This document shows, one piece after another, positions 1,881 through 38,986 of a stretch of DNA of 39,994 bases (positions within the stretch are counted from its first letter, which is position 1; the number at the start of each line of letters is the position of its first letter). The notes under the pieces are model-generated. The model searched no databases, was not told where the DNA came from, and saw nothing but the letters and a program-made list of their open reading frames with translations. Position numbers and translations under genes: made by a program. Origin of the DNA: a virus. Lineage: Duplodnaviria; Heunggongvirae; Uroviricota; Caudoviricetes. The stretch covers positions 1-39,994 of the IMG/VR virus record IMGVR_UViG_2703718828_000004; one strand, given 5' to 3'.

Positions 1881-2324
1881 TCACTCTCCTTTGATGCTAA
1901 TGCCAGTAGCGCGGATTGCATCGATGACTTCAGAAACTTTGTATGCCATTACCGTTTGGTAATCATCGTGAAAATCTGTTCGATGAAGCATGCTGCTACG
2001 TTCCGGGAGCAGTATTTCCCGCTCCTCCAGTTCTGCTATGCGCTTTTTTGCTGTTTCCAGCTCGTTCAGCAGTGTTAGCACGGTAGCCGGATTGGCGGCG
2101 GCGATGAATTCAGCATTGGCCTGCTGTTCTATTTGGAAATCTTCATCGAAACCGCTTTCTGGATGCGCTCCTTCAATTCTGCAAATGGGAATATATCCAG
2201 CAACTTCACGATGAATTAGCGCATCATCACCATCAAATCGGCCCTCTCCATATTCGAGCGACCACTCGCCACACGTTGCTTTTTCTGCCTTAGCACGCAG
2301 TTCCTGATAATCAATCTGGCTCAC
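1881..2324 (-). CDS. Ead/Ea22-like protein (147 aa, GTG start)
   Basis: Motif EFIAAANPATVLTLLNELETAKKRIAELEE typical of the Ead/Ea22 family; AGGAGG RBS before the GTG. Confidence 0.55.
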   Translation of the reverse strand: MSQIDYQELRAKAEKATCGEWSLEYGEGRFDGDDALIHREVAGYIPICRIEGAHPESGFDEDFQIEQQANAEFIAAANPATVLTLLNELETAKKRIAELEEREILLPERSSMLHRTDFHDDYQTVMAYKVSEVIDAIRATGISIKGE

Positions 2325-2565
2325 TGGTTGCCTCCTGCTTTTCTGCCTTCAACACCATGCGAGAACCATCATCCAGCTCCCACGCGATCTCACCACCTTC
2401 AGCCATGACCAGTCGCCACACCAATTGAGCAGCCTCATTGGTAACATCACGACCTGGATCATTGCCAACGCGCATACGTCCACCTTCAACATCGCGCATT
2501 TTTGCCAGCATGATAGTTTTTGATAGCGGTGAAAAACCAAGCTGTAGTCGTGCTGAATTACTCAC
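2311..2565 (-). CDS. Hypothetical protein (84 aa, GTG start)
   Basis: AGGAGG RBS 6 nt upstream of the GTG, which overlaps the upstream stop (GTGA); same 17-nt start context as the gene at 2324. Confidence 0.45.
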
Positions 2566-2747
2566 TGGTTGCCTCCTTTGCGCCACATCGCATTCAGATA
2601 TTTGTTGTCATTAACAGAACCGAAACTCTTTCTTTTAAGCAATTCCTCTCTCGATGGCATTGGCTTTACGCGTTGGCGAATAATCATTTCTGCCGGAAGA
2701 ATTCCGGGATTGTATGCAAGTCCTCTCATGGTAAATTCCTCAGTCAT
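2562..2747 (-). CDS. Hypothetical protein (about 61 aa; start uncertain, 2747 or 2762)
   Basis: ORF track 2562-2882; likely start MTEEF overlapping the upstream stop. Confidence 0.35.
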
Positions 2748-3036
2748 TACTGATAGCGCCATAGCGTGAGCGGTAATTACGCAGGCGCGGATCGATATAT
2801 TCAGGGAAGTGGGTATATGTGGCTTTGCGGAATGGTCGGATTGATGTCTGGTAAATTCGCTCGCGTTCTTCTTTCTCTGCAAGCCATATACAATGGCGAA
2901 ATTCCTTTTCCTCTTTCGTTTCCTGCGGTAGCGACATTATCAGGTCGTAGTTTTTTCTGAATTTATCCAGCACCTCCGATACGGAATTGCCGGAACAGCG
3001 GCGCGCGTCGTCCGCACCATACAGAGGCGCTGGCAT
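2740..3036 (-). CDS. Hypothetical protein (98 aa)
   Basis: ORF with RBS AGGAGAAAAT before the ATG; product unrecognised. Confidence 0.5.
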
Positions 3037-3049
3037 GATTTTCTCCTGA

Positions 3050-3565
3050 TTAAATTGCGTGAATAGCGTGACGAGGGAAGGGGAGAGTTACTGGCGCAAA
3101 TGGTATATCGTCGTCAAACTCCATAGGTGGTTCGCTGTGATTTCCCTGCTGCTGAGGTTGCTGTCTTTGTTGCTGACCGTTATTTCGCTGAGGTGAAGAC
3201 TGTTCATTGCCTCCTTGCTTGCCACCAAGCATTTGCATGGTTCCACCAACGCCTACGATAACTTCGGTAGTGAACCGATCCTGTCCGCTTTGATCCTGCC
3301 ATTTTCTTGTCCGCAATTTGCCTTCAAGATAAACCTCAGAGCCTTTTCGCAGATACTCGCTGGCAATTTCTGCTAGTTTCCCGCTCATTACCACACGGTG
3401 CCACTCCGTCTGCTCCTTTTGCTCTCCAGTTTGCTTATCACGCCATTGTTCTGACGTAGCAACTGTAAGGTTTGCAAATGCCGTTCCTGATGGTGAATAT
3501 CTGATTTCTGGATCATGCCCAAGGCGACCAATAATGATCACCTTATTTACGCCTCTGCTTGCCAT
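3050..3565 (-). CDS. ssb: Single-stranded DNA-binding protein with a 15-aa extension beyond DDDIPF
   Basis: OB-fold core [16 protein letters not shown]...; Gly/Gln-rich linker; acidic tip MEFDDDIPF, then in-frame [15 protein letters not shown] before the stop. Confidence 0.85.
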
Positions 3566-4273
3566 TTATGCCGCCTGTTTTAGTTCGTTAACTCTGATGT
3601 TCATTACCTGAACGCATTTAGCCTGCGCCTCCTCGTTGCCAGCCATTAATTGCCAGTCACGCTGATAACGCTCGATGAGTTTTTTCTTGTCAGTTTCTGT
3701 TGACGCATAATCGCTGAAGTCTTTCAGGATTTGTTCGCAGTCAACCGATGGAGATTTCTGGTTGGTATTTTCTGGTGATGGTTTGTTATCTGATGCTGGG
3801 ATTGCCCATCCCGGCAGCGATGGAGGGAGCCAGTAAAATCCTGTTCCATCCTTCAGTTTTGCCCTGTGCCACCCCTGCTTTTTATCGAGAGATGTTTGTG
3901 CGAAACCTTCCTCAAGGTTATACAGATACCGACCGATTCCCCACTGAACGGCAGCACGCTTCATTGCACCTGAACGACCACCTTTGACGGCTTCTACCTG
4001 CGTGTTTTCAGCAGCATCCCATTTGGTTACCCATTCGGAATCAATCTTTATTGATATGCCGCATTCAACTCCGCCGTTGTTGGGAATATCGCGGTATTCA
4101 TTGCGCCATCCTGCTTTGCCGCAAACATCGTCCAGGCGTTTCATGATTGCCCGGTTCGTGACATAAGCCAGCACCATAGCCCACACCTTGCCATCTCGTG
4201 TTTTACCGCTTTGCTGTATTCGCCATTCGATATCTTCAGGGCTGAATGGCTCATCGAATTTATTCAAATCCAT
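3566..4273 (-). CDS. Rad52/Sak-type single-strand annealing recombinase (235 aa)
   Basis: Motifs RAIMKRLDDVCGKAGW and GGRSGAMKRAAVQWGIGRYLYNL; occupies the lambda bet position. Confidence 0.65.
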   Translation of the reverse strand: MDLNKFDEPFSPEDIEWRIQQSGKTRDGKVWAMVLAYVTNRAIMKRLDDVCGKAGWRNEYRDIPNNGGVECGISIKIDSEWVTKWDAAENTQVEAVKGGRSGAMKRAAVQWGIGRYLYNLEEGFAQTSLDKKQGWHRAKLKDGTGFYWLPPSLPGWAIPASDNKPSPENTNQKSPSVDCEQILKDFSDYASTETDKKKLIERYQRDWQLMAGNEEAQAKCVQVMNIRVNELKQAA

Positions 4274-5032: not shown

Positions 5033-5503
5033 CTAGTAGAATACCCAATTTTCTGTTTCTTGGTTGTGTCCAAAGTTATATTCAATATCTGGTGTTGATG
5101 TATCAATATTCTTTATCCCATCAACAAGAGTTGATACAACAGCCAAATCTTGTTTGATTCTCATTAAATGGTATTTCTTCCGGCGCAATAAACTCTCAAT
5201 GGCAAGTTTCTTCGTTGGGAATGCAAAAGATCTTTCTGCATTTTTTGCTACTTTCTTAATTGCATATCTATTTCTCCTTTGTTTCCATTCCTGTAACCAC
5301 TGATTTGGTGCTGGTTTAAAATTAACAATCCAATGCGCAGGAACCAACCATGCATAATGCTCTGTCTGATGAAAAGCTATATATTGAAGTGCGAATATTT
5401 TTATCCCATCTTCTTCAACTGTCGCCTGGAATCTCCAGAAAACAGGCATTCCATCATGTTCAGTTTCTGATTCAGGAAAAGGTACGCTCCATGATTTTGT
5501 CAT
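5033..5503 (-). CDS. Hypothetical AT-rich early protein (156 aa) directly downstream of N
   Basis: RBS GAGGTGAGAT 9 nt after the N stop; clearly lower GC than neighbours; no recognisable motifs. Confidence 0.6.
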   Translation of the reverse strand: MTKSWSVPFPESETEHDGMPVFWRFQATVEEDGIKIFALQYIAFHQTEHYAWLVPAHWIVNFKPAPNQWLQEWKQRRNRYAIKKVAKNAERSFAFPTKKLAIESLLRRKKYHLMRIKQDLAVVSTLVDGIKNIDTSTPDIEYNFGHNQETENWVFY

Positions 5504-5511
5504 ATCTCACC

Positions 5512-5838
5512 TCAAATAAGTGGTTTGCTGCCTAATTTCATTTTCTGGCGACCAACACAAGTTACACCCATTTCACTGCGTGGCTTGCTGTACCATGTGC
5601 GCTGATTCTTGCGCTCAATACGTTGCAGGTTGCTTTCAATTTGTTCGTGGTATTCAGCCAGCACCGTAAGGTCTATCGGATTCAGTGCGCTTTCTACTCG
5701 TGATTTCGGTTTGCGATTCAGCGAGAGAATAGGGCGGTTAACTGGTTTTGCGCTTACCCCAACCAACAGGGGATTTGCTGCTTTCCATTGAGCCTGTTTC
5801 TCTGCGCGACGTTCGCGGCGGCGTGTTTGTGCATCCAT
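5512..5838 (-). CDS. N: Antitermination protein N (lambda-type, 108 aa)
   Basis: MDAQTRRRERRAEKQAQWKAANPLLVGVSAKPVNRPILSLNRKPKSRVESALNPIDLTVLAEY... is near-identical to lambda N from memory, including the Arg-rich motif. Confidence 0.9.
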   Translation of the reverse strand: MDAQTRRRERRAEKQAQWKAANPLLVGVSAKPVNRPILSLNRKPKSRVESALNPIDLTVLAEYHEQIESNLQRIERKNQRTWYSKPRSEMGVTCVGRQKMKLGSKPLI

Positions 5839-6138: not shown

Positions 6139-6180
6139 CACCTTCATGGTGGTCAGTGCGTCCTGCTGATGGCTTAAAAT

Positions 6181-6264
6181 ATACCTACAGGTAAAACCCC
6201 TGTCTATACCTGTAGGTAAATAAAATTGATGTGAGAGTTTACCTGCTTGAATTTTCAGGTAATT
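6181..6264. promoter_or_regulatory. OL operator cluster and pL region
   Basis: Two 16-bp palindromes (TACCTACAGGTA, TACCTGTAGGTA) plus TTACCTG-N10-CAGGTAA, matching the OR sites. Confidence 0.7.
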
Positions 6265-6280
6265 AATTTTTTGGATTGAT

Positions 6281-6305
6281 ATAAAAAAGCCCGCTTTGCG
6301 GGCTG
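6281..6305 (-). terminator. Terminator of the cI operon
   Basis: On the - strand: stem AGCCCGC/GCGGGCT followed by TTTTTT. Confidence 0.65.
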
Positions 6306-6315
6306 AAAGGAGATG

Positions 6316-6612
6316 TCAGAAGCTATTTGGATTGCTTGGCCATTGCGGCAATTTTGATTCTACTGGGGTGTGTTTGGGTTTGAGTCCGTTTAAGTAGTCA
6401 AGGCGCTCAATGGCGCATTTATACATAGCAATCTGCTCTGATGACATGTCGTCGTATGACATGCCTTTGAACTTTTTAATTATCGATTCTGCCTCATGTA
6501 TAAGATTCTTCTTCCTCATGAGTTCAGCTGTATGCTTAGAGCTTACAGGAGATAACTTTGCCCATATGAAGCAGATGATTACAACAGCGACTACTATGCC
6601 GGGTATAAACAT
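6316..6612 (-). CDS. Small single-pass membrane protein downstream of cI (98 aa from ATG; track ORF extends to a TTG at 6630)
   Basis: N-terminal hydrophobic helix FIPGIVVAVVIICFIWA; AT-rich; 15 nt downstream of the cI stop; terminator follows. Confidence 0.55.
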   Translation of the reverse strand: MFIPGIVVAVVIICFIWAKLSPVSSKHTAELMRKKNLIHEAESIIKKFKGMSYDDMSSEQIAMYKCAIERLDYLNGLKPKHTPVESKLPQWPSNPNSF

Positions 6613-6626
6613 TTGCTGCTTTATCC

Positions 6627-7313
6627 TCAAACTTTTGGCAGATCGTCCTGGTCTACGTACCTGGTGTGTTTCACAATAGCTGAAACAAAATGCATTTTAT
6701 CAACTTCTTCAACAGGAAGAGTGATTGGGCGGTGATCACTGTTTATGCTACTAAACTGATAATCACCGTCTCTTGTTTTGTTCATGATCTTTATCATGTT
6801 GTGGCCGTCTTTGGTCCTTACAAAGACTTCATCACCTGGATGTACTGGCGTATTTGGTTCAATAACAACATATTCTCCTGACTGAATCCTTGGCCACATG
6901 CTGTCACCCTTAACCTTCAGACCGTAAGCATCTTTATCGCCGCTGTAGATGCTTAACCAACCGGATCTGAATTCAATCATATCCACTGAGCCATCAACTC
7001 CCAAAACGGCTTCACCAATTACCGGAACAAAACCCGCACGAACATTACCCGCAAACTCAAGATGGTCCGTAGCTCCAGCTTTACCATCTGCAAGCATGTC
7101 CATCCATCCGCGTGGGAGATTAAAAGATTTTTCAATTAGTTCCATCATATCGTCAGCAATGCGTTTTTTTCCGCTTTTTCCTTCCGGATACAGCATTCTG
7201 GAAACGTATGATGGTTCCCTTTCTATTCGACGAGCCAACTCTGAGGCCTTTCCATTACAGAATCGGTCTCTTATCTCTATCAGCCTTAGTCGTCTTTGTT
7301 CGTATTTATCCAT
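6627..7313 (-). CDS. cI: CI-type prophage repressor (HTH plus S24 LexA-like peptidase domain, 228 aa)
   Basis: N-terminal HTH; C-terminal S24 motif KVKGDSMWP (Ser nucleophile); divergent from cro across the operator region. Confidence 0.85.
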   Translation of the reverse strand: MDKYEQRRLRLIEIRDRFCNGKASELARRIEREPSYVSRMLYPEGKSGKKRIADDMMELIEKSFNLPRGWMDMLADGKAGATDHLEFAGNVRAGFVPVIGEAVLGVDGSVDMIEFRSGWLSIYSGDKDAYGLKVKGDSMWPRIQSGEYVVIEPNTPVHPGDEVFVRTKDGHNMIKIMNKTRDGDYQFSSINSDHRPITLPVEEVDKMHFVSAIVKHTRYVDQDDLPKV

Positions 7314-7332
7314 GATTTAATTCTATCTTTGA

Positions 7333-7387
7333 TTACCTGCCGGTAAATAACCTATGGGTATTGATTTGCTTTTTACCTACAGGTAAA
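7333..7387. promoter_or_regulatory. OR operators with pRM/pR
   Basis: Palindromes TTACCTGCCGGTAAA (7333-7347) and TTTACCTACAGGTAAA (7372-7387), with a weaker site between. Confidence 0.7.
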
Positions 7388-26127: not shown

Positions 26128-26298
26128 ATGTTTGTCAAACCTGTTAAAGGGCGGTCAGTGCCTGACCCTGCCCGCGGCGACCTTTTGCCCGCCGAAGGGC
26201 GAAATGTTGACGAGAACAACTACTGGCTGCGCCGTGAAGCAGCGGGTGATATCCGGCGCGTGAATAAAAAGGTGAACACCGATGACGATAAGCTTTAA
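26128..26298 (+). CDS. Small conserved protein preceding the sheath (56 aa)
   Basis: ORF MFVKPVKGRSVPDPARGDLLPAEGRNVDENNYWLRREAAGDIRRVNKKVNTDDDKL; overlaps the sheath start; below the track cut-off. Confidence 0.4.
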   Translation: MFVKPVKGRSVPDPARGDLLPAEGRNVDENNYWLRREAAGDIRRVNKKVNTDDDKL

Positions 26299-27778
26299 CA
26301 CCATTCCGTCGAATACGCTGGTTCCGCTGTTTTATGCGGAAATGGATAACTCGGTGGCGAATACTGCACAGGACAGCGGAGCATCGCTGCTGATTGGGCA
26401 TGCCAATAACGGTGCAGAGATTGTTGCCAACAGTCTGGTACTGATGCCGTCGGCAGACTATGCACGCCAGATTTGTGGTGCGGGAAGTCAGCTGGCGCGT
26501 ATGGTCGAGGCTTATCGCCAGACCGACCCGTTTGGTGAGCTGTATGTGATTGCCGTTCCTGAATCCACGGGCGCGGCGGCAACAGTTACGCTGACGGTGA
26601 CCGGGGCGGCAACCGAAACCGGCACGGTGAATGTTTATGTGGGACGTACCCGCGTGCAGGCACCGGTGACCAACGGCGATAACGTCACGACGATTGCCAG
26701 CAGTATCCGGGATGCCATCAATGCCGTTCCGGCCCTGCCGTTTACGGCCTCATCTTCGGCAGGCGTGGTCACGCTGACCGCGCGTCATAAGGGGCTTTGC
26801 GGGAATGAAATTCCTGTCAGCCTCAATTACTACGGCTTTGGTGGGGGCGAAGTGCTGCCAGCGGGCGTACAGATTGCCGTGGCGACGGGTACCGCCGGAA
26901 CGGGTGCTCCGGTTCTCACCGGCGCGGTGGCTGCAATGGCGGATGAGCCGTTTGATTATATTGGCCTGCCGTTCAACGACACGGCCTCCGTTAACACGCT
27001 GGTGACCGAGATGAACGATACCAGCGGTCGCTGGAGCTATGTGCGTCAGCTGTATGGTCATGTGTATACGGCAAAGATCGGCACGCTGTCAGAACTGGTG
27101 ACCGCAGGTGACCAGTTTAACCAGCAGCACATTACCCTGGCGGGGTACGAAAAAAACACCCAGACGCCTGCCGACGAGCTGGCGGCAAGCCGTACCGCCC
27201 GCGCAGCGGTGTTTATCCGCAACGATCCGGCACGTCCCACGCAGACCGGTGAGCTGGTGGGTATGCTGCCTGCGCCGAAGGGGAAACGGTTCACAATGAC
27301 CGAACAACAGACCCTGCTGTCTCATGGCGTGGCAACGGCGTATGTCGAAAGCGGGGTACTGCGCATTCAGCGTGATGTCACCACGTACAGGAAAAACGCT
27401 TACGGGGTTGCGGATAACAGCTACCTCGACAGCGAGACGCTGCATACCAGTGCGTATGTACTGCGCAAACTGAAATCCGTCATTACCAGTAAGTACGGGC
27501 GTCACAAGCTTGCCAGCGACGGTACCCGCTTTGGTCCCGGTCAGGCGATTGTCACCCCGGCGGTGATCAAAGGGGAACTGCTGGCAACCTACCGTCAGCT
27601 TGAGCGTGAGGGGATCGTGGAAAACTACGAACTGTTTAAGCAGTACCTGGTTGTGGAGCGTGATGCCAGCGATCCGAACCGCCTGAACACGCTGTTCCCG
27701 CCTGACTATGTTAACCAGTTGCGTGTCTTTGCCGTGGTTAACCAGTTCCGTCTTCAGTATTCAGAGGAGTCCGCATAA
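26282..27778 (+). CDS. Contractile tail sheath protein (Mu gpL-like, 498 aa)
   Basis: Size and position, followed by the tube gene. Confidence 0.8.
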   Translation: MTISFNTIPSNTLVPLFYAEMDNSVANTAQDSGASLLIGHANNGAEIVANSLVLMPSADYARQICGAGSQLARMVEAYRQTDPFGELYVIAVPESTGAAATVTLTVTGAATETGTVNVYVGRTRVQAPVTNGDNVTTIASSIRDAINAVPALPFTASSSAGVVTLTARHKGLCGNEIPVSLNYYGFGGGEVLPAGVQIAVATGTAGTGAPVLTGAVAAMADEPFDYIGLPFNDTASVNTLVTEMNDTSGRWSYVRQLYGHVYTAKIGTLSELVTAGDQFNQQHITLAGYEKNTQTPADELAASRTARAAVFIRNDPARPTQTGELVGMLPAPKGKRFTMTEQQTLLSHGVATAYVESGVLRIQRDVTTYRKNAYGVADNSYLDSETLHTSAYVLRKLKSVITSKYGRHKLASDGTRFGPGQAIVTPAVIKGELLATYRQLEREGIVENYELFKQYLVVERDASDPNRLNTLFPPDYVNQLRVFAVVNQFRLQYSEESA

Positions 27779-37592: not shown

Positions 37593-38750
37593 TCACTCTA
37601 CCTTTTCATCAAGCCAGTCCGCCCACCACTGCATCATCTCCCTGCGCTTATCGAGATACTGCGCATGGTTGTAAATACCGCGCACAGATCCGCCGTTGGC
37701 ATGTGCCAGTTGCACTTCAATAGCATCAGCAGGCCATTCGTGCTCGTTCATAATCGTGCTGAATTCATGCCTGAATCCGTGACCGCTTTCCAGACCCTCA
37801 TAGCCGATTCGTTTGATCACAAGTAATACCGCGTTCTCGCAGATTGGCTTCTTCTTATCGTTACGCCCGGCAAAAACAAACTCTGATACTGGTTTGGTGA
37901 TGGAGCTTAACGTAGTGAGAAGTTCAACCACCTGGTCCGACATCGGGACCACATGAATCTTGCGTCCCTTCATCACACTGGCGTCGATAGTGATAATCCT
38001 GTTTTCAAAATCGACGTTATTCCATAGCATAGAACGAAGCTCTTTCGTTCTTAGGGCTGTGTAGCGTAAAACTTTGGTCGCAATGAGCGATACGATACTA
38101 CCTGAAAATGTTGCCAGTGCTTTATTGAATGCCGGGATCTGGTCTGCAGGAAGAAACGGGAAGTTCTTCTTGCGGTATCCCTTCATGGCGTCAGCAAGGT
38201 CAGGTGCCGGGTTATATTTAGCCCTGCCGGTGACAATAGCGTAACGGAAAACCTCGCCGCATCTTCTGCGTGCTTTGTTGGCTCGCTCCATTGCACCGCG
38301 ATCTTCAAATCTGCGGATTACTTCCAGCAGTTGCATCGGCTCAATATCCTGAATCTCAAGACCGCCGATGATGGGTAAAATGTCGTCATCAAACATTTTT
38401 GCAAGTTCATTTGCATAGCCTACTGACCAGACTTGCTTCTTGTGCTCGTACCATTCCTTGTAAATCGCACTAAAGGAATTGTTGTTAGACGAAGCCTTTT
38501 TCGCCTTTACCGGATCGATGCCGACCGAGATGTCTTTCCTCGCAGTCCATGCTTTATCCCTTGCCTCCTGCAAAGTCATTAGCGGATATTTCCCGACAGT
38601 CAGGATTTTCTCCTTACCGTCAATCTTGTAGCGAAGCTGCCAGACCTTTTTTCCGGATACAGGGACATAAAGGTACAGGCCATTACCATCGAGAAGGCGG
38701 TATGGTTTTTCTTTCGGCTTTGCTGCTTCAATCTGCTTAACGGTGAGCAT
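37593..38750 (-). CDS. intS: Tyrosine integrase, P4-type (IntS-like)
   Basis: N-terminal MLTVKQIEAAKPKEKPYRLLDGNGLYLYV typical of P4-family integrases; C-terminal catalytic region with HxxR and Tyr; adjacent to the tRNA 3' end. Confidence 0.85.
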   Translation of the reverse strand: MLTVKQIEAAKPKEKPYRLLDGNGLYLYVPVSGKKVWQLRYKIDGKEKILTVGKYPLMTLQEARDKAWTARKDISVGIDPVKAKKASSNNNSFSAIYKEWYEHKKQVWSVGYANELAKMFDDDILPIIGGLEIQDIEPMQLLEVIRRFEDRGAMERANKARRRCGEVFRYAIVTGRAKYNPAPDLADAMKGYRKKNFPFLPADQIPAFNKALATFSGSIVSLIATKVLRYTALRTKELRSMLWNNVDFENRIITIDASVMKGRKIHVVPMSDQVVELLTTLSSITKPVSEFVFAGRNDKKKPICENAVLLVIKRIGYEGLESGHGFRHEFSTIMNEHEWPADAIEVQLAHANGGSVRGIYNHAQYLDKRREMMQWWADWLDEKVE

Positions 38751-38911
38751 GGGTAAAAATCCGGTGGGTAAAATTATTTTATCCACTTTTTACCCGTCAT
38801 GGAGTGCGGCTGTCAACGATCTGACGCGAACCATTACGAACTGTGAATCTACGGAAGGCTTGATATTCAGGGGATTTTGCGGACTGGTACGGATGGGAGC
38901 GAACTGATAAA

Positions 38912-38986
38912 TGGTGTCCCCTGCAGGAATCGAACCTGCAATTAGCCCTTAGGAGGGGCTCGTTATATCCATTTAACTAAGAGGAC
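38912..38986 (-). tRNA. argW: tRNA-Arg (anticodon CCU)
   Basis: Reverse complement gives a 75-nt tRNA: acceptor stem GTCCTCT/AGGGGAC, T-loop GGTTCGATTCC, anticodon loop CTCCTAA, 3' CCA encoded. Confidence 0.9.

Follow-up and report, generated by a model that had tools for sequence, protein, structure and literature searches.

In a stretch of 39,994 nucleotides (nt) from a lambdoid prophage (IMG/VR record IMGVR_UViG_2703718828_000004), which we refer to as the window, a small gene lies directly behind the gene for a cI-type repressor. We found that this gene, here called gene X (its product, X), is real yet usually missed by annotation, that it defines a small family, and that the family occupies two contexts, linked to repressor genes or at the position of sieA in phage P22. 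What was already known is that gene X stands in databases as a hypothetical protein. X is predicted to be anchored in the inner membrane by one N-terminal helix, and we regard it as a reasonable candidate for a new phage-exclusion factor. The gene and its immediate surroundings are as follows.

6316–6612, minus strand: gene X (mEp043 gp49 family, phrog_10450), 98 codons from ATG 6612, stop codon TGA at 6318–6316.
6627–7313, minus strand: cI-type repressor of 228 amino acids (aa) with an S24 peptidase C-terminal domain (Pfam Peptidase_S24, 1.4e-17; phrog_4).
6623–6627, minus strand: Shine-Dalgarno sequence GAGGA of gene X, read from the sequence, 10 nt from ATG 6612.
6280–6304, minus strand: intrinsic terminator of the cI-X transcript, with a G+C stem of 7 bp, the loop AAA and the tail UUUUUUAU.
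5512–5838, minus strand: N antiterminator, the first gene of the pL operon and the far edge of the slot, 99% identical to N as annotated in mEp043.

The frame of gene X spans 6316–6630 on the minus strand if a TTG codon is used as the start (104 aa), and 6316–6612 if the start is ATG (98 aa). A first-pass annotation, made from the sequence alone, had placed an AT-rich reading frame directly 3' of the repressor gene and upstream of a terminator. The frame, the terminator and the composition confirm this: gene X is the single open reading frame (ORF) between the cI stop (6627) and the terminator (6304), and it has 41.4% GC against 50.9% for the window. As cI has 43.2% GC, the AT-richness is common to both genes. 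The small intergenic gap also stands, although it counts 14 nt (6626–6613) and not the 15 nt first given. The cI stop codon TGA occupies 6629–6627 and is overlapped both by the TTG codon (6630–6628) and by the GAGGA of gene X; the latter overlap, with the 10-nt spacing to ATG 6612, suggests that gene X is translationally coupled.

The terminator hairpin, AGCCCGCAAAGCGGGCT followed by a T-run at 6304–6288, begins 12 nt past the gene X stop codon and has a predicted energy of -12.6 kcal/mol (z = -2.6). The segment 6261–6315 has no variable site in 25 haplotypes, the terminator and the stop region are invariant, and a divergent relative (locus L055) has an analogous hairpin at the equivalent place. 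Operator repeats of the OL (left operator) side, TTACCTGTAGGTA, follow at 6219–6181, downstream of the terminator. The terminator and operators confirm that gene X lies inside the immunity region, upstream of the terminator and between cI and OL/pL. This is the position of rexAB in lambda, as had been proposed, and comparison with the lambda record bears the proposal out.

To judge whether the frame encodes a protein, we used an alignment of 33 copies of gene X representing 25 haplotypes (the window, mEp043, an E. coli genome, 28 viral contigs and one Escherichia sp. contig). The alternative is that gene X is no functional protein gene but a frame that arose by chance, or is decaying, in the spacer from cI to the terminator. 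It is short and AT-rich, and the RefSeq pipeline PGAP leaves it unannotated in E. coli strain MB19, which we inspected directly, and in 29 of the 30 listed E. coli genomes, the sole annotated copy among these 30 being WP_000470488.1. Against this, the alignment contains no indels and no stops. Variable sites fall at third codon positions in 12 of 19 cases (P = 0.007), and the changes comprise 10 synonymous on 60 sites and 9 non-synonymous on 234 sites (P = 0.002). The mean ratio of non-synonymous to synonymous polymorphism (pN/pS) is 0.20, compared with 0.11 for cI. Homologues at 31–43% identity keep the same length, anchor, motifs and architecture in unrelated DNA contexts, and the ribosome site is conserved. 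The existence of the ORF, as first claimed, therefore holds; gene X is confirmed as a genuine protein gene under purifying selection, and the spurious-ORF explanation is effectively refuted, with a very low residual probability.

The homologues also settle the start codon, which the first-pass annotation had left uncertain because of the TTG at 6630. All of them begin with M/V-[YFW]-I-[PS] at the position of ATG 6612, with ATG and GTG alternating as start codons across the family. An alternative in-frame start upstream is impossible in 5 of the 10 loci examined, and a GGAG-type ribosome site (AGAGGA/GGAG) precedes the start in nearly all homologues. We therefore rejected TTG 6630 in favour of ATG 6612; the TTG start is used in GenBank record PV340537, and homology does not back it.

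The region of gene X is 98.4% identical to phage mEp043; the cI proteins are 100% identical, and X is 96% identical to mEp043 gp49, the product of gene 49 (mEp043_049), which is annotated merely as a hypothetical protein. The remote-homology search proposed in the first-pass annotation was run, and it matched only phrog_10450, a family of unknown function, with no homology to Rex, SieA, SieB, HK97 gp15 or PADLOC systems. X aligns with this profile over residues 1–98 of its 98 positions (E = 3.7e-54), and ORF14 of phage N7 matches it as well (E = 3.2e-52). Pfam and NCBIfam gave no significant match to X, PADLOC-DB v2 gave 0 families at E up to 10, and a sequence profile search of the PDB gave 0 matches at E up to 1. 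An HMMER scan of 1.84 billion representative proteins returned 11 matches, about 8 of them genuine clusters; P0008, P0012 and P0015, which are long and repetitive or form coiled coils, were discarded as spurious. When 5.8 billion proteins were searched with a profile, 24 clusters at 90% identity were found, all labelled hypothetical protein, from E. coli, E. fergusonii and Salmonella. In the literature searched on mEp043 and on repressor-linked exclusion genes we found no functional study of the family.

The cI-X block is present in 52 of 5426 complete E. coli genomes and is entire in each. An instance of missed annotation is the N-cI interval of locus L062 (NZ_CP073981; 1235–1926): PGAP annotates nothing there, as in most genomes with this module, although the ORF is intact and 99.8% identical. 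With gene X absent from most RefSeq annotations, automated surveys of defence genes miss it.

Across all databases searched, the X family has just two genomic contexts. Members of the first, clade A, follow immediately after cI of this lineage. They are found in the window, in mEp043, in 28 viral contigs and in the 52 E. coli genomes, as well as in two divergent lineages (L055 and L056), whose cI is 84–85% identical to that of the window and whose X is only 42% identical. Members of the second, clade B, are 31–38% identical to X and belong to P22-like phages, where they converge with the 3' end of the ejection-protein gene 16, which is exactly the position of sieA in P22. Clade B is found in 57 of the 5426 E. 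coli genomes (about 1%), a share that clade A also reaches (52 of 5426). At two loci (L050 and L065) the clade B gene lies directly behind the gene for the Mnt repressor, mirroring the cI-X arrangement, and at another (L066) it has no adjacent repressor gene. At least six unrelated upstream sequences abut the clade B genes about 25 nt before the start codon, which indicates that the gene with its ribosome site is the conserved unit.

Both paralogues occur on one 38-kb contig of a P22-like phage (IMGVR_UViG_2563366933_000009; L010, 26757–35050, and L050, 1811–10020). One of them lies behind cI there, and the other directly behind a Mnt-like repressor gene and adjoining gene 16. In several loci (L036, 3533–3898 on the minus strand; also L033, L042, L043 and L048) the gene upstream of the clade B paralogue is divergently oriented, so that the paralogue must be served by its own promoter, inside that gene or close to it; the product of the divergent gene has 121 aa and an HExxH-like motif (HECAHM), with no Pfam match. 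Phage N7 (L003) has two more genes of unknown function between mnt and its X paralogue (3008–3848). One matches phrog_4293 and carries CxxC pairs; the other matches phrog_24865 and encodes 170 aa with one hydrophobic helix. These extra genes indicate that the immI/sieA locus bears an array of several cargo genes.

The first-pass annotation had described a single-pass membrane protein of roughly 98 aa, and this prediction is borne out by the one hydrophobic segment of X, at residues 1–17 (mean Kyte-Doolittle hydropathy 2.84). All 7 family members compared have a single N-terminal hydrophobic segment that starts at residues 1–3 with a mean hydropathy of 2.2–2.9. The next-best 17-residue stretch reaches at most 0.46 in each, so there is no second segment. 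In all 7, no lysine or arginine precedes the segment and 2–4 follow within the next 15 residues, a charge pattern that by the positive-inside rule predicts an N-out/C-in anchor with the remainder in the cytoplasm. From the start supported by homology, these 7 members thus lack the positively charged n-region of a Sec signal peptide; the TTG 6630 start alone would add a positively charged residue (MRIKQQ) before the segment.

An AlphaFold2 model of X, built from an 11-sequence alignment with a predicted local distance difference test (pLDDT) score of 83.7, has a long helix at residues 5–47 that emerges from the membrane; a loop follows, then another helix at 58–76 and an extended tail. X is thus predicted to be a single-pass inner-membrane protein, anchored N-out/C-in by residues 1 to about 19, with a cytoplasmic helical hairpin. 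Foldseek comparison of the model with BFVD and the PDB gave nothing at E <= 0.001; the best match (E = 0.8) and the others were generic helices only. The family shares H27, LIxEA, M56, YxCAIERL and WP, and the invariant or nearly invariant residues are H27, K34, I38, E40, A41, M56, C66, A67, R70, L71, L74, L88 and W91-P92. Such conservation suggests that X has a specific surface for binding and is not just a hydrophobic peptide. X evolves about 5–6 times faster than cI, with non-synonymous divergence (dN) of 0.48–0.61 against 0.09–0.10 in the same phage pairs, a comparison in which synonymous sites are saturated in both genes.

Both contexts of the family are prophage-expressed slots. In lambda and P22, exclusion genes that lysogens express classically reside in the rexAB and sieA slots, and the P22 prophage expresses mnt and sieA (PMC10883804). 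Taken with the apparent exclusivity towards sieA described below, the coexistence of two paralogues in one phage and the rapid divergence, these slots make exclusion the best single hypothesis. Our tentative preference, drawn from position, is that X protects the lysogen against other phages, by a block of the superinfection-exclusion type at the inner membrane. We prefer a block to entry over abortive infection because of the neighbourhood of clade B and because no partner gene is present. The first-pass annotation had called X a strong candidate for an exclusion or abortive-infection determinant, which overstated evidence consisting of position alone.

In this reading, cI and gene X would be transcribed together from the maintenance promoter, ribosomes would start on gene X at ATG 6612, coupled to their termination on cI, and the transcript would end at the hairpin at 6304–6288. 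Such co-transcription would have X made continuously in the lysogen. The protein would be anchored in the inner membrane with its N-terminus outside, and would present a helical hairpin of about 75 residues and a short W-P tail at the cytoplasmic face. This cytoplasmic domain might bind a DNA-delivery component of the incoming phage or a host inner-membrane partner, and the divergent paralogues would differ in specificity. An extended version of the exclusion hypothesis seems to us possible but on the unlikely side: that the family is a new superinfection-exclusion family, unrelated to those known and substituting for SieA, whose members act as membrane-tethered cytoplasmic plugs on DNA-delivery conduits (for clade B, gp16 and gp20) and were captured by cI and mnt operons for expression in the lysogen.

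Several points weigh against exclusion. The hotspot position also fits cargo unrelated to defence, and the fast evolution of X could reflect weak constraint and not an arms race. Many of the loci that bear on the absence of SieA from clade B are nearly identical, and that absence rests on type A SieA and a single motif. In addition, the predicted cytoplasmic domain speaks against models in which X acts on periplasmic steps.

Among the known systems most like X is P22 SieA, which confers superinfection exclusion by blocking DNA injection via the ejection proteins gp16 and gp20. Clade B genes sit where sieA does, downstream of mnt and converging on gene 16, and SieA and clade B appear to be mutually exclusive in the 28 loci examined: no SieA was detectable in any of them, as tested with type A SieA and one motif only. 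That motif, FxRYPxEAxxFNK, is conserved in SieA (PMC10883804) and is absent from X and from all 28 clade B loci. SieA itself differs in having 162–164 aa and three predicted transmembrane helices (four in types B and C) against the one helix of X, and hhalign gave a probability of 0.3% for a relationship. The location between genes 16 and 9, typical of sieA, is occupied by clade B, while the copy in the window lies behind cI; moreover, the window prophage has a contractile tail and no P22-like ejection proteins.

Lambda rexAB resembles gene X in its slot (after cI, before OL/pL, on the maintenance transcript, with co-transcription of gene X being our inference) and in having an inner-membrane component. 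It differs in consisting of two genes (279 and 144 aa), with RexB a multi-pass protein, compared with one single-pass protein of 98 aa. The hhalign probability for X and RexB was 0.4%, the cI-X operon contains no RexA-like gene, and X has no PHROG match beyond phrog_10450 and no Pfam or PADLOC match. For lambda SieB the hhalign probability was 0.15%.

HK97 gp15 is a moron-encoded superinfection exclusion protein that blocks DNA entry at the inner membrane. Like X it is small, expressed from the prophage and endowed with one N-terminal hydrophobic helix, and in the HK97 record its gene forms a compact cassette with its own terminator. It has 62 aa, however, and is encoded in the tail gene cluster, and hhalign gave a probability of 2% with only the hydrophobic helices aligned. 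The lactococcal Sie2009-type and streptococcal Ltp-type proteins are small, membrane-associated blockers of DNA injection, expressed in lysogens from genes adjacent to the repressor gene. Ltp is a lipoprotein involved in superinfection exclusion, according to PMC3952083. The Sie2009 and Ltp types differ from X in their Gram-positive hosts, in size and anchoring, and in having domains outside the cell, and no search detected homology between them and X. On these comparisons X should be filed under none of Rex, SieA, SieB, HK97 gp15 and the PADLOC systems, as every homology test failed.

Other phages with related repressors carry different cargo in the same slot. The interval between cI and N is known as a mosaic defence hotspot that also holds rexAB and, in phage BTP1, bstA (PMC8585504). 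In H-19B and 933W, whose cI is about 49% identical to that of the window, the slot contains, respectively, a HigB toxin gene (Pfam 4.5e-30) with a helix-turn-helix (HTH) partner, both unannotated, and a set formed by DUF3024, L0083 and the kinase gene stk; in lambda it contains rexAB. The H-19B genes lie directly downstream of cI at 2301–3004 of AF034975 (L070), where the HTH gene overlaps the HigB-family gene, and the pair looks like a toxin-antitoxin system in the rexAB slot. Within the mEp043 immunity type the slot is fixed, with gene X present in each of the 52 E. coli genomes and each of the 33 loci. The variable hotspot that the first-pass annotation had thought of looking for is thus found across relatives of cI (HigBA, stk, rexAB) and not within this immunity type.

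The company of this slot raises the alternative that X is a one-protein membrane system of abortive infection, in which the cytoplasmic domain would sense a phage product, the anchors would oligomerise and depolarise or permeabilise the inner membrane, and the infected cell would die before phage release. RexAB of lambda, Stk of 933W and BstA of BTP1 are all abortive systems. BstA and Stk are, like X, encoded by single genes behind a lambdoid repressor gene, and the cI preceding stk is 49% identical to that of the window. The bstA gene is reported to be highly expressed in lysogeny and has its own Rho-independent terminator (PMC8585504), and Stk is described as blocking HK97 (PMC6356687). A single hydrophobic helix joined to a charged helical domain would also suit such a system, as would fast evolution. 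BstA and Stk are nevertheless large soluble proteins (BstA of a DNA-binding type, Stk a kinase) with no similarity to X and no overlap in PHROG, Pfam or PADLOC matches, and a profile comparison of X with L0084 of 933W was negative. X has one transmembrane helix, no similarity to RexB or SieB and no PADLOC match; its operon contains no sensor gene as partner, the terminator following directly after gene X; and the clade B position beside ejection-protein genes fits a block to entry better. We consider abortive infection improbable.

A role in the lysogen outside defence is a serious rival to the exclusion hypothesis, if still an unlikely one in our estimate. X might modulate a host inner-membrane protein (a protease such as FtsH, a transporter, or the division or stress machinery), tune the lysis-lysogeny decision or induction, or serve as a host fitness factor. 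The link of gene X to a single cI lineage persists where cI identity has fallen to 84%, and the predicted cytoplasmic-facing domain would suit membrane-bound host enzymes. Precedents exist in lambda RexA and RexB, reported in PMC12315714 to aid the switch from lysogeny to the lytic state, and in DicB, a small prophage protein that acts on a host inner-membrane protein (PMC6832061). Against such a role, clade B lies away from cI at the immI/sieA locus, sometimes without an adjacent repressor gene (L066), which makes a regulatory function specific to cI unlikely. Rapid divergence and two paralogues in one phage would also be unusual for a protein that docks on a conserved host target.

Should X protect lysogens, a very compact single-pass family would join the few inner-membrane exclusion factors of enterobacterial prophages. 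It would also open a second and independent way into the passage of phage DNA across the inner membrane, which even in P22 and lambda is a poorly understood step. Without a phage phenotype, gene X would be one further uncharacterised accessory gene, or moron. The family is readily testable: the gene has 98 codons and is carried by mEp043, a laboratory phage of known sequence that can be grown on K-12, and the paralogue found naturally at the sieA locus would allow specificities to be swapped. Gene X is an inexpensive and well-posed experimental candidate rather than a surprise.

The regulatory elements that flank the cI-X block are the following.

6178–6219, strand not set: OL, two operator repeats at 6181–6194 and 6206–6219, overlapped by a pL-like promoter.
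6206–6178, minus strand: pL-like promoter TAGACA-17-TATATT; mEp043 c-1 carries a putative PL annotation at the same place.
7333–7386, strand not set: OR (right operator), three operator repeats of the TTACCTGTAGGTAA type between cI and cro, from a repeat scan.
7320–7347, minus strand: PRM-like promoter (for repressor maintenance) TTTACC-16-TAGAAT, from a consensus scan (9/12) and its placement relative to the OR repeats.
6239–6262, strand not set: inverted repeat TTACCTG-N10-CAGGTAA between the gene X terminator and OL, read from the sequence.

The 14-bp operator has 17 matches in the window, compared with 2.8 expected, and the OR repeats (7386–7333) are the same as those of OL. For the PRM-like promoter, the consensus scan alone is not above chance. 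Its hexamers end 7 nt before the cI ATG (7313), and on this consensus match the cI-X mRNA would be leaderless, as in lambda. A promoter for gene X inside cI was rejected, as the lone consensus match (7004–6976) is at chance level (4 sites against 3.1 expected). An Rfam scan of the window matched only a tRNA at its far end and no known RNA near gene X. The inverted repeat at 6239–6262 is kept at the same relative position in L055 and L056 despite the 42% identity of gene X in these lineages; it could function in looping, or as an operator, either a third one or an atypical one.

Taken as a whole, the window amounts to an almost complete lambdoid prophage whose tail is contractile (tail sheath gene at 26282–27778, plus strand, phrog_165). 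This places an immunity module of the mEp043 type in a virion background different from that of mEp043. A tyrosine integrase gene (37593–38786, minus strand) adjoins a tRNA-Arg(CCT) gene (38912–38986, minus strand), the likely attachment site. At the start of the pL operon, directly after N, is an ORF of 156 aa (5033–5503, minus strand) that matches only phrog_1636, of unknown function, and has no Pfam match. It may be another accessory gene, and mEp043 has different genes at its position.

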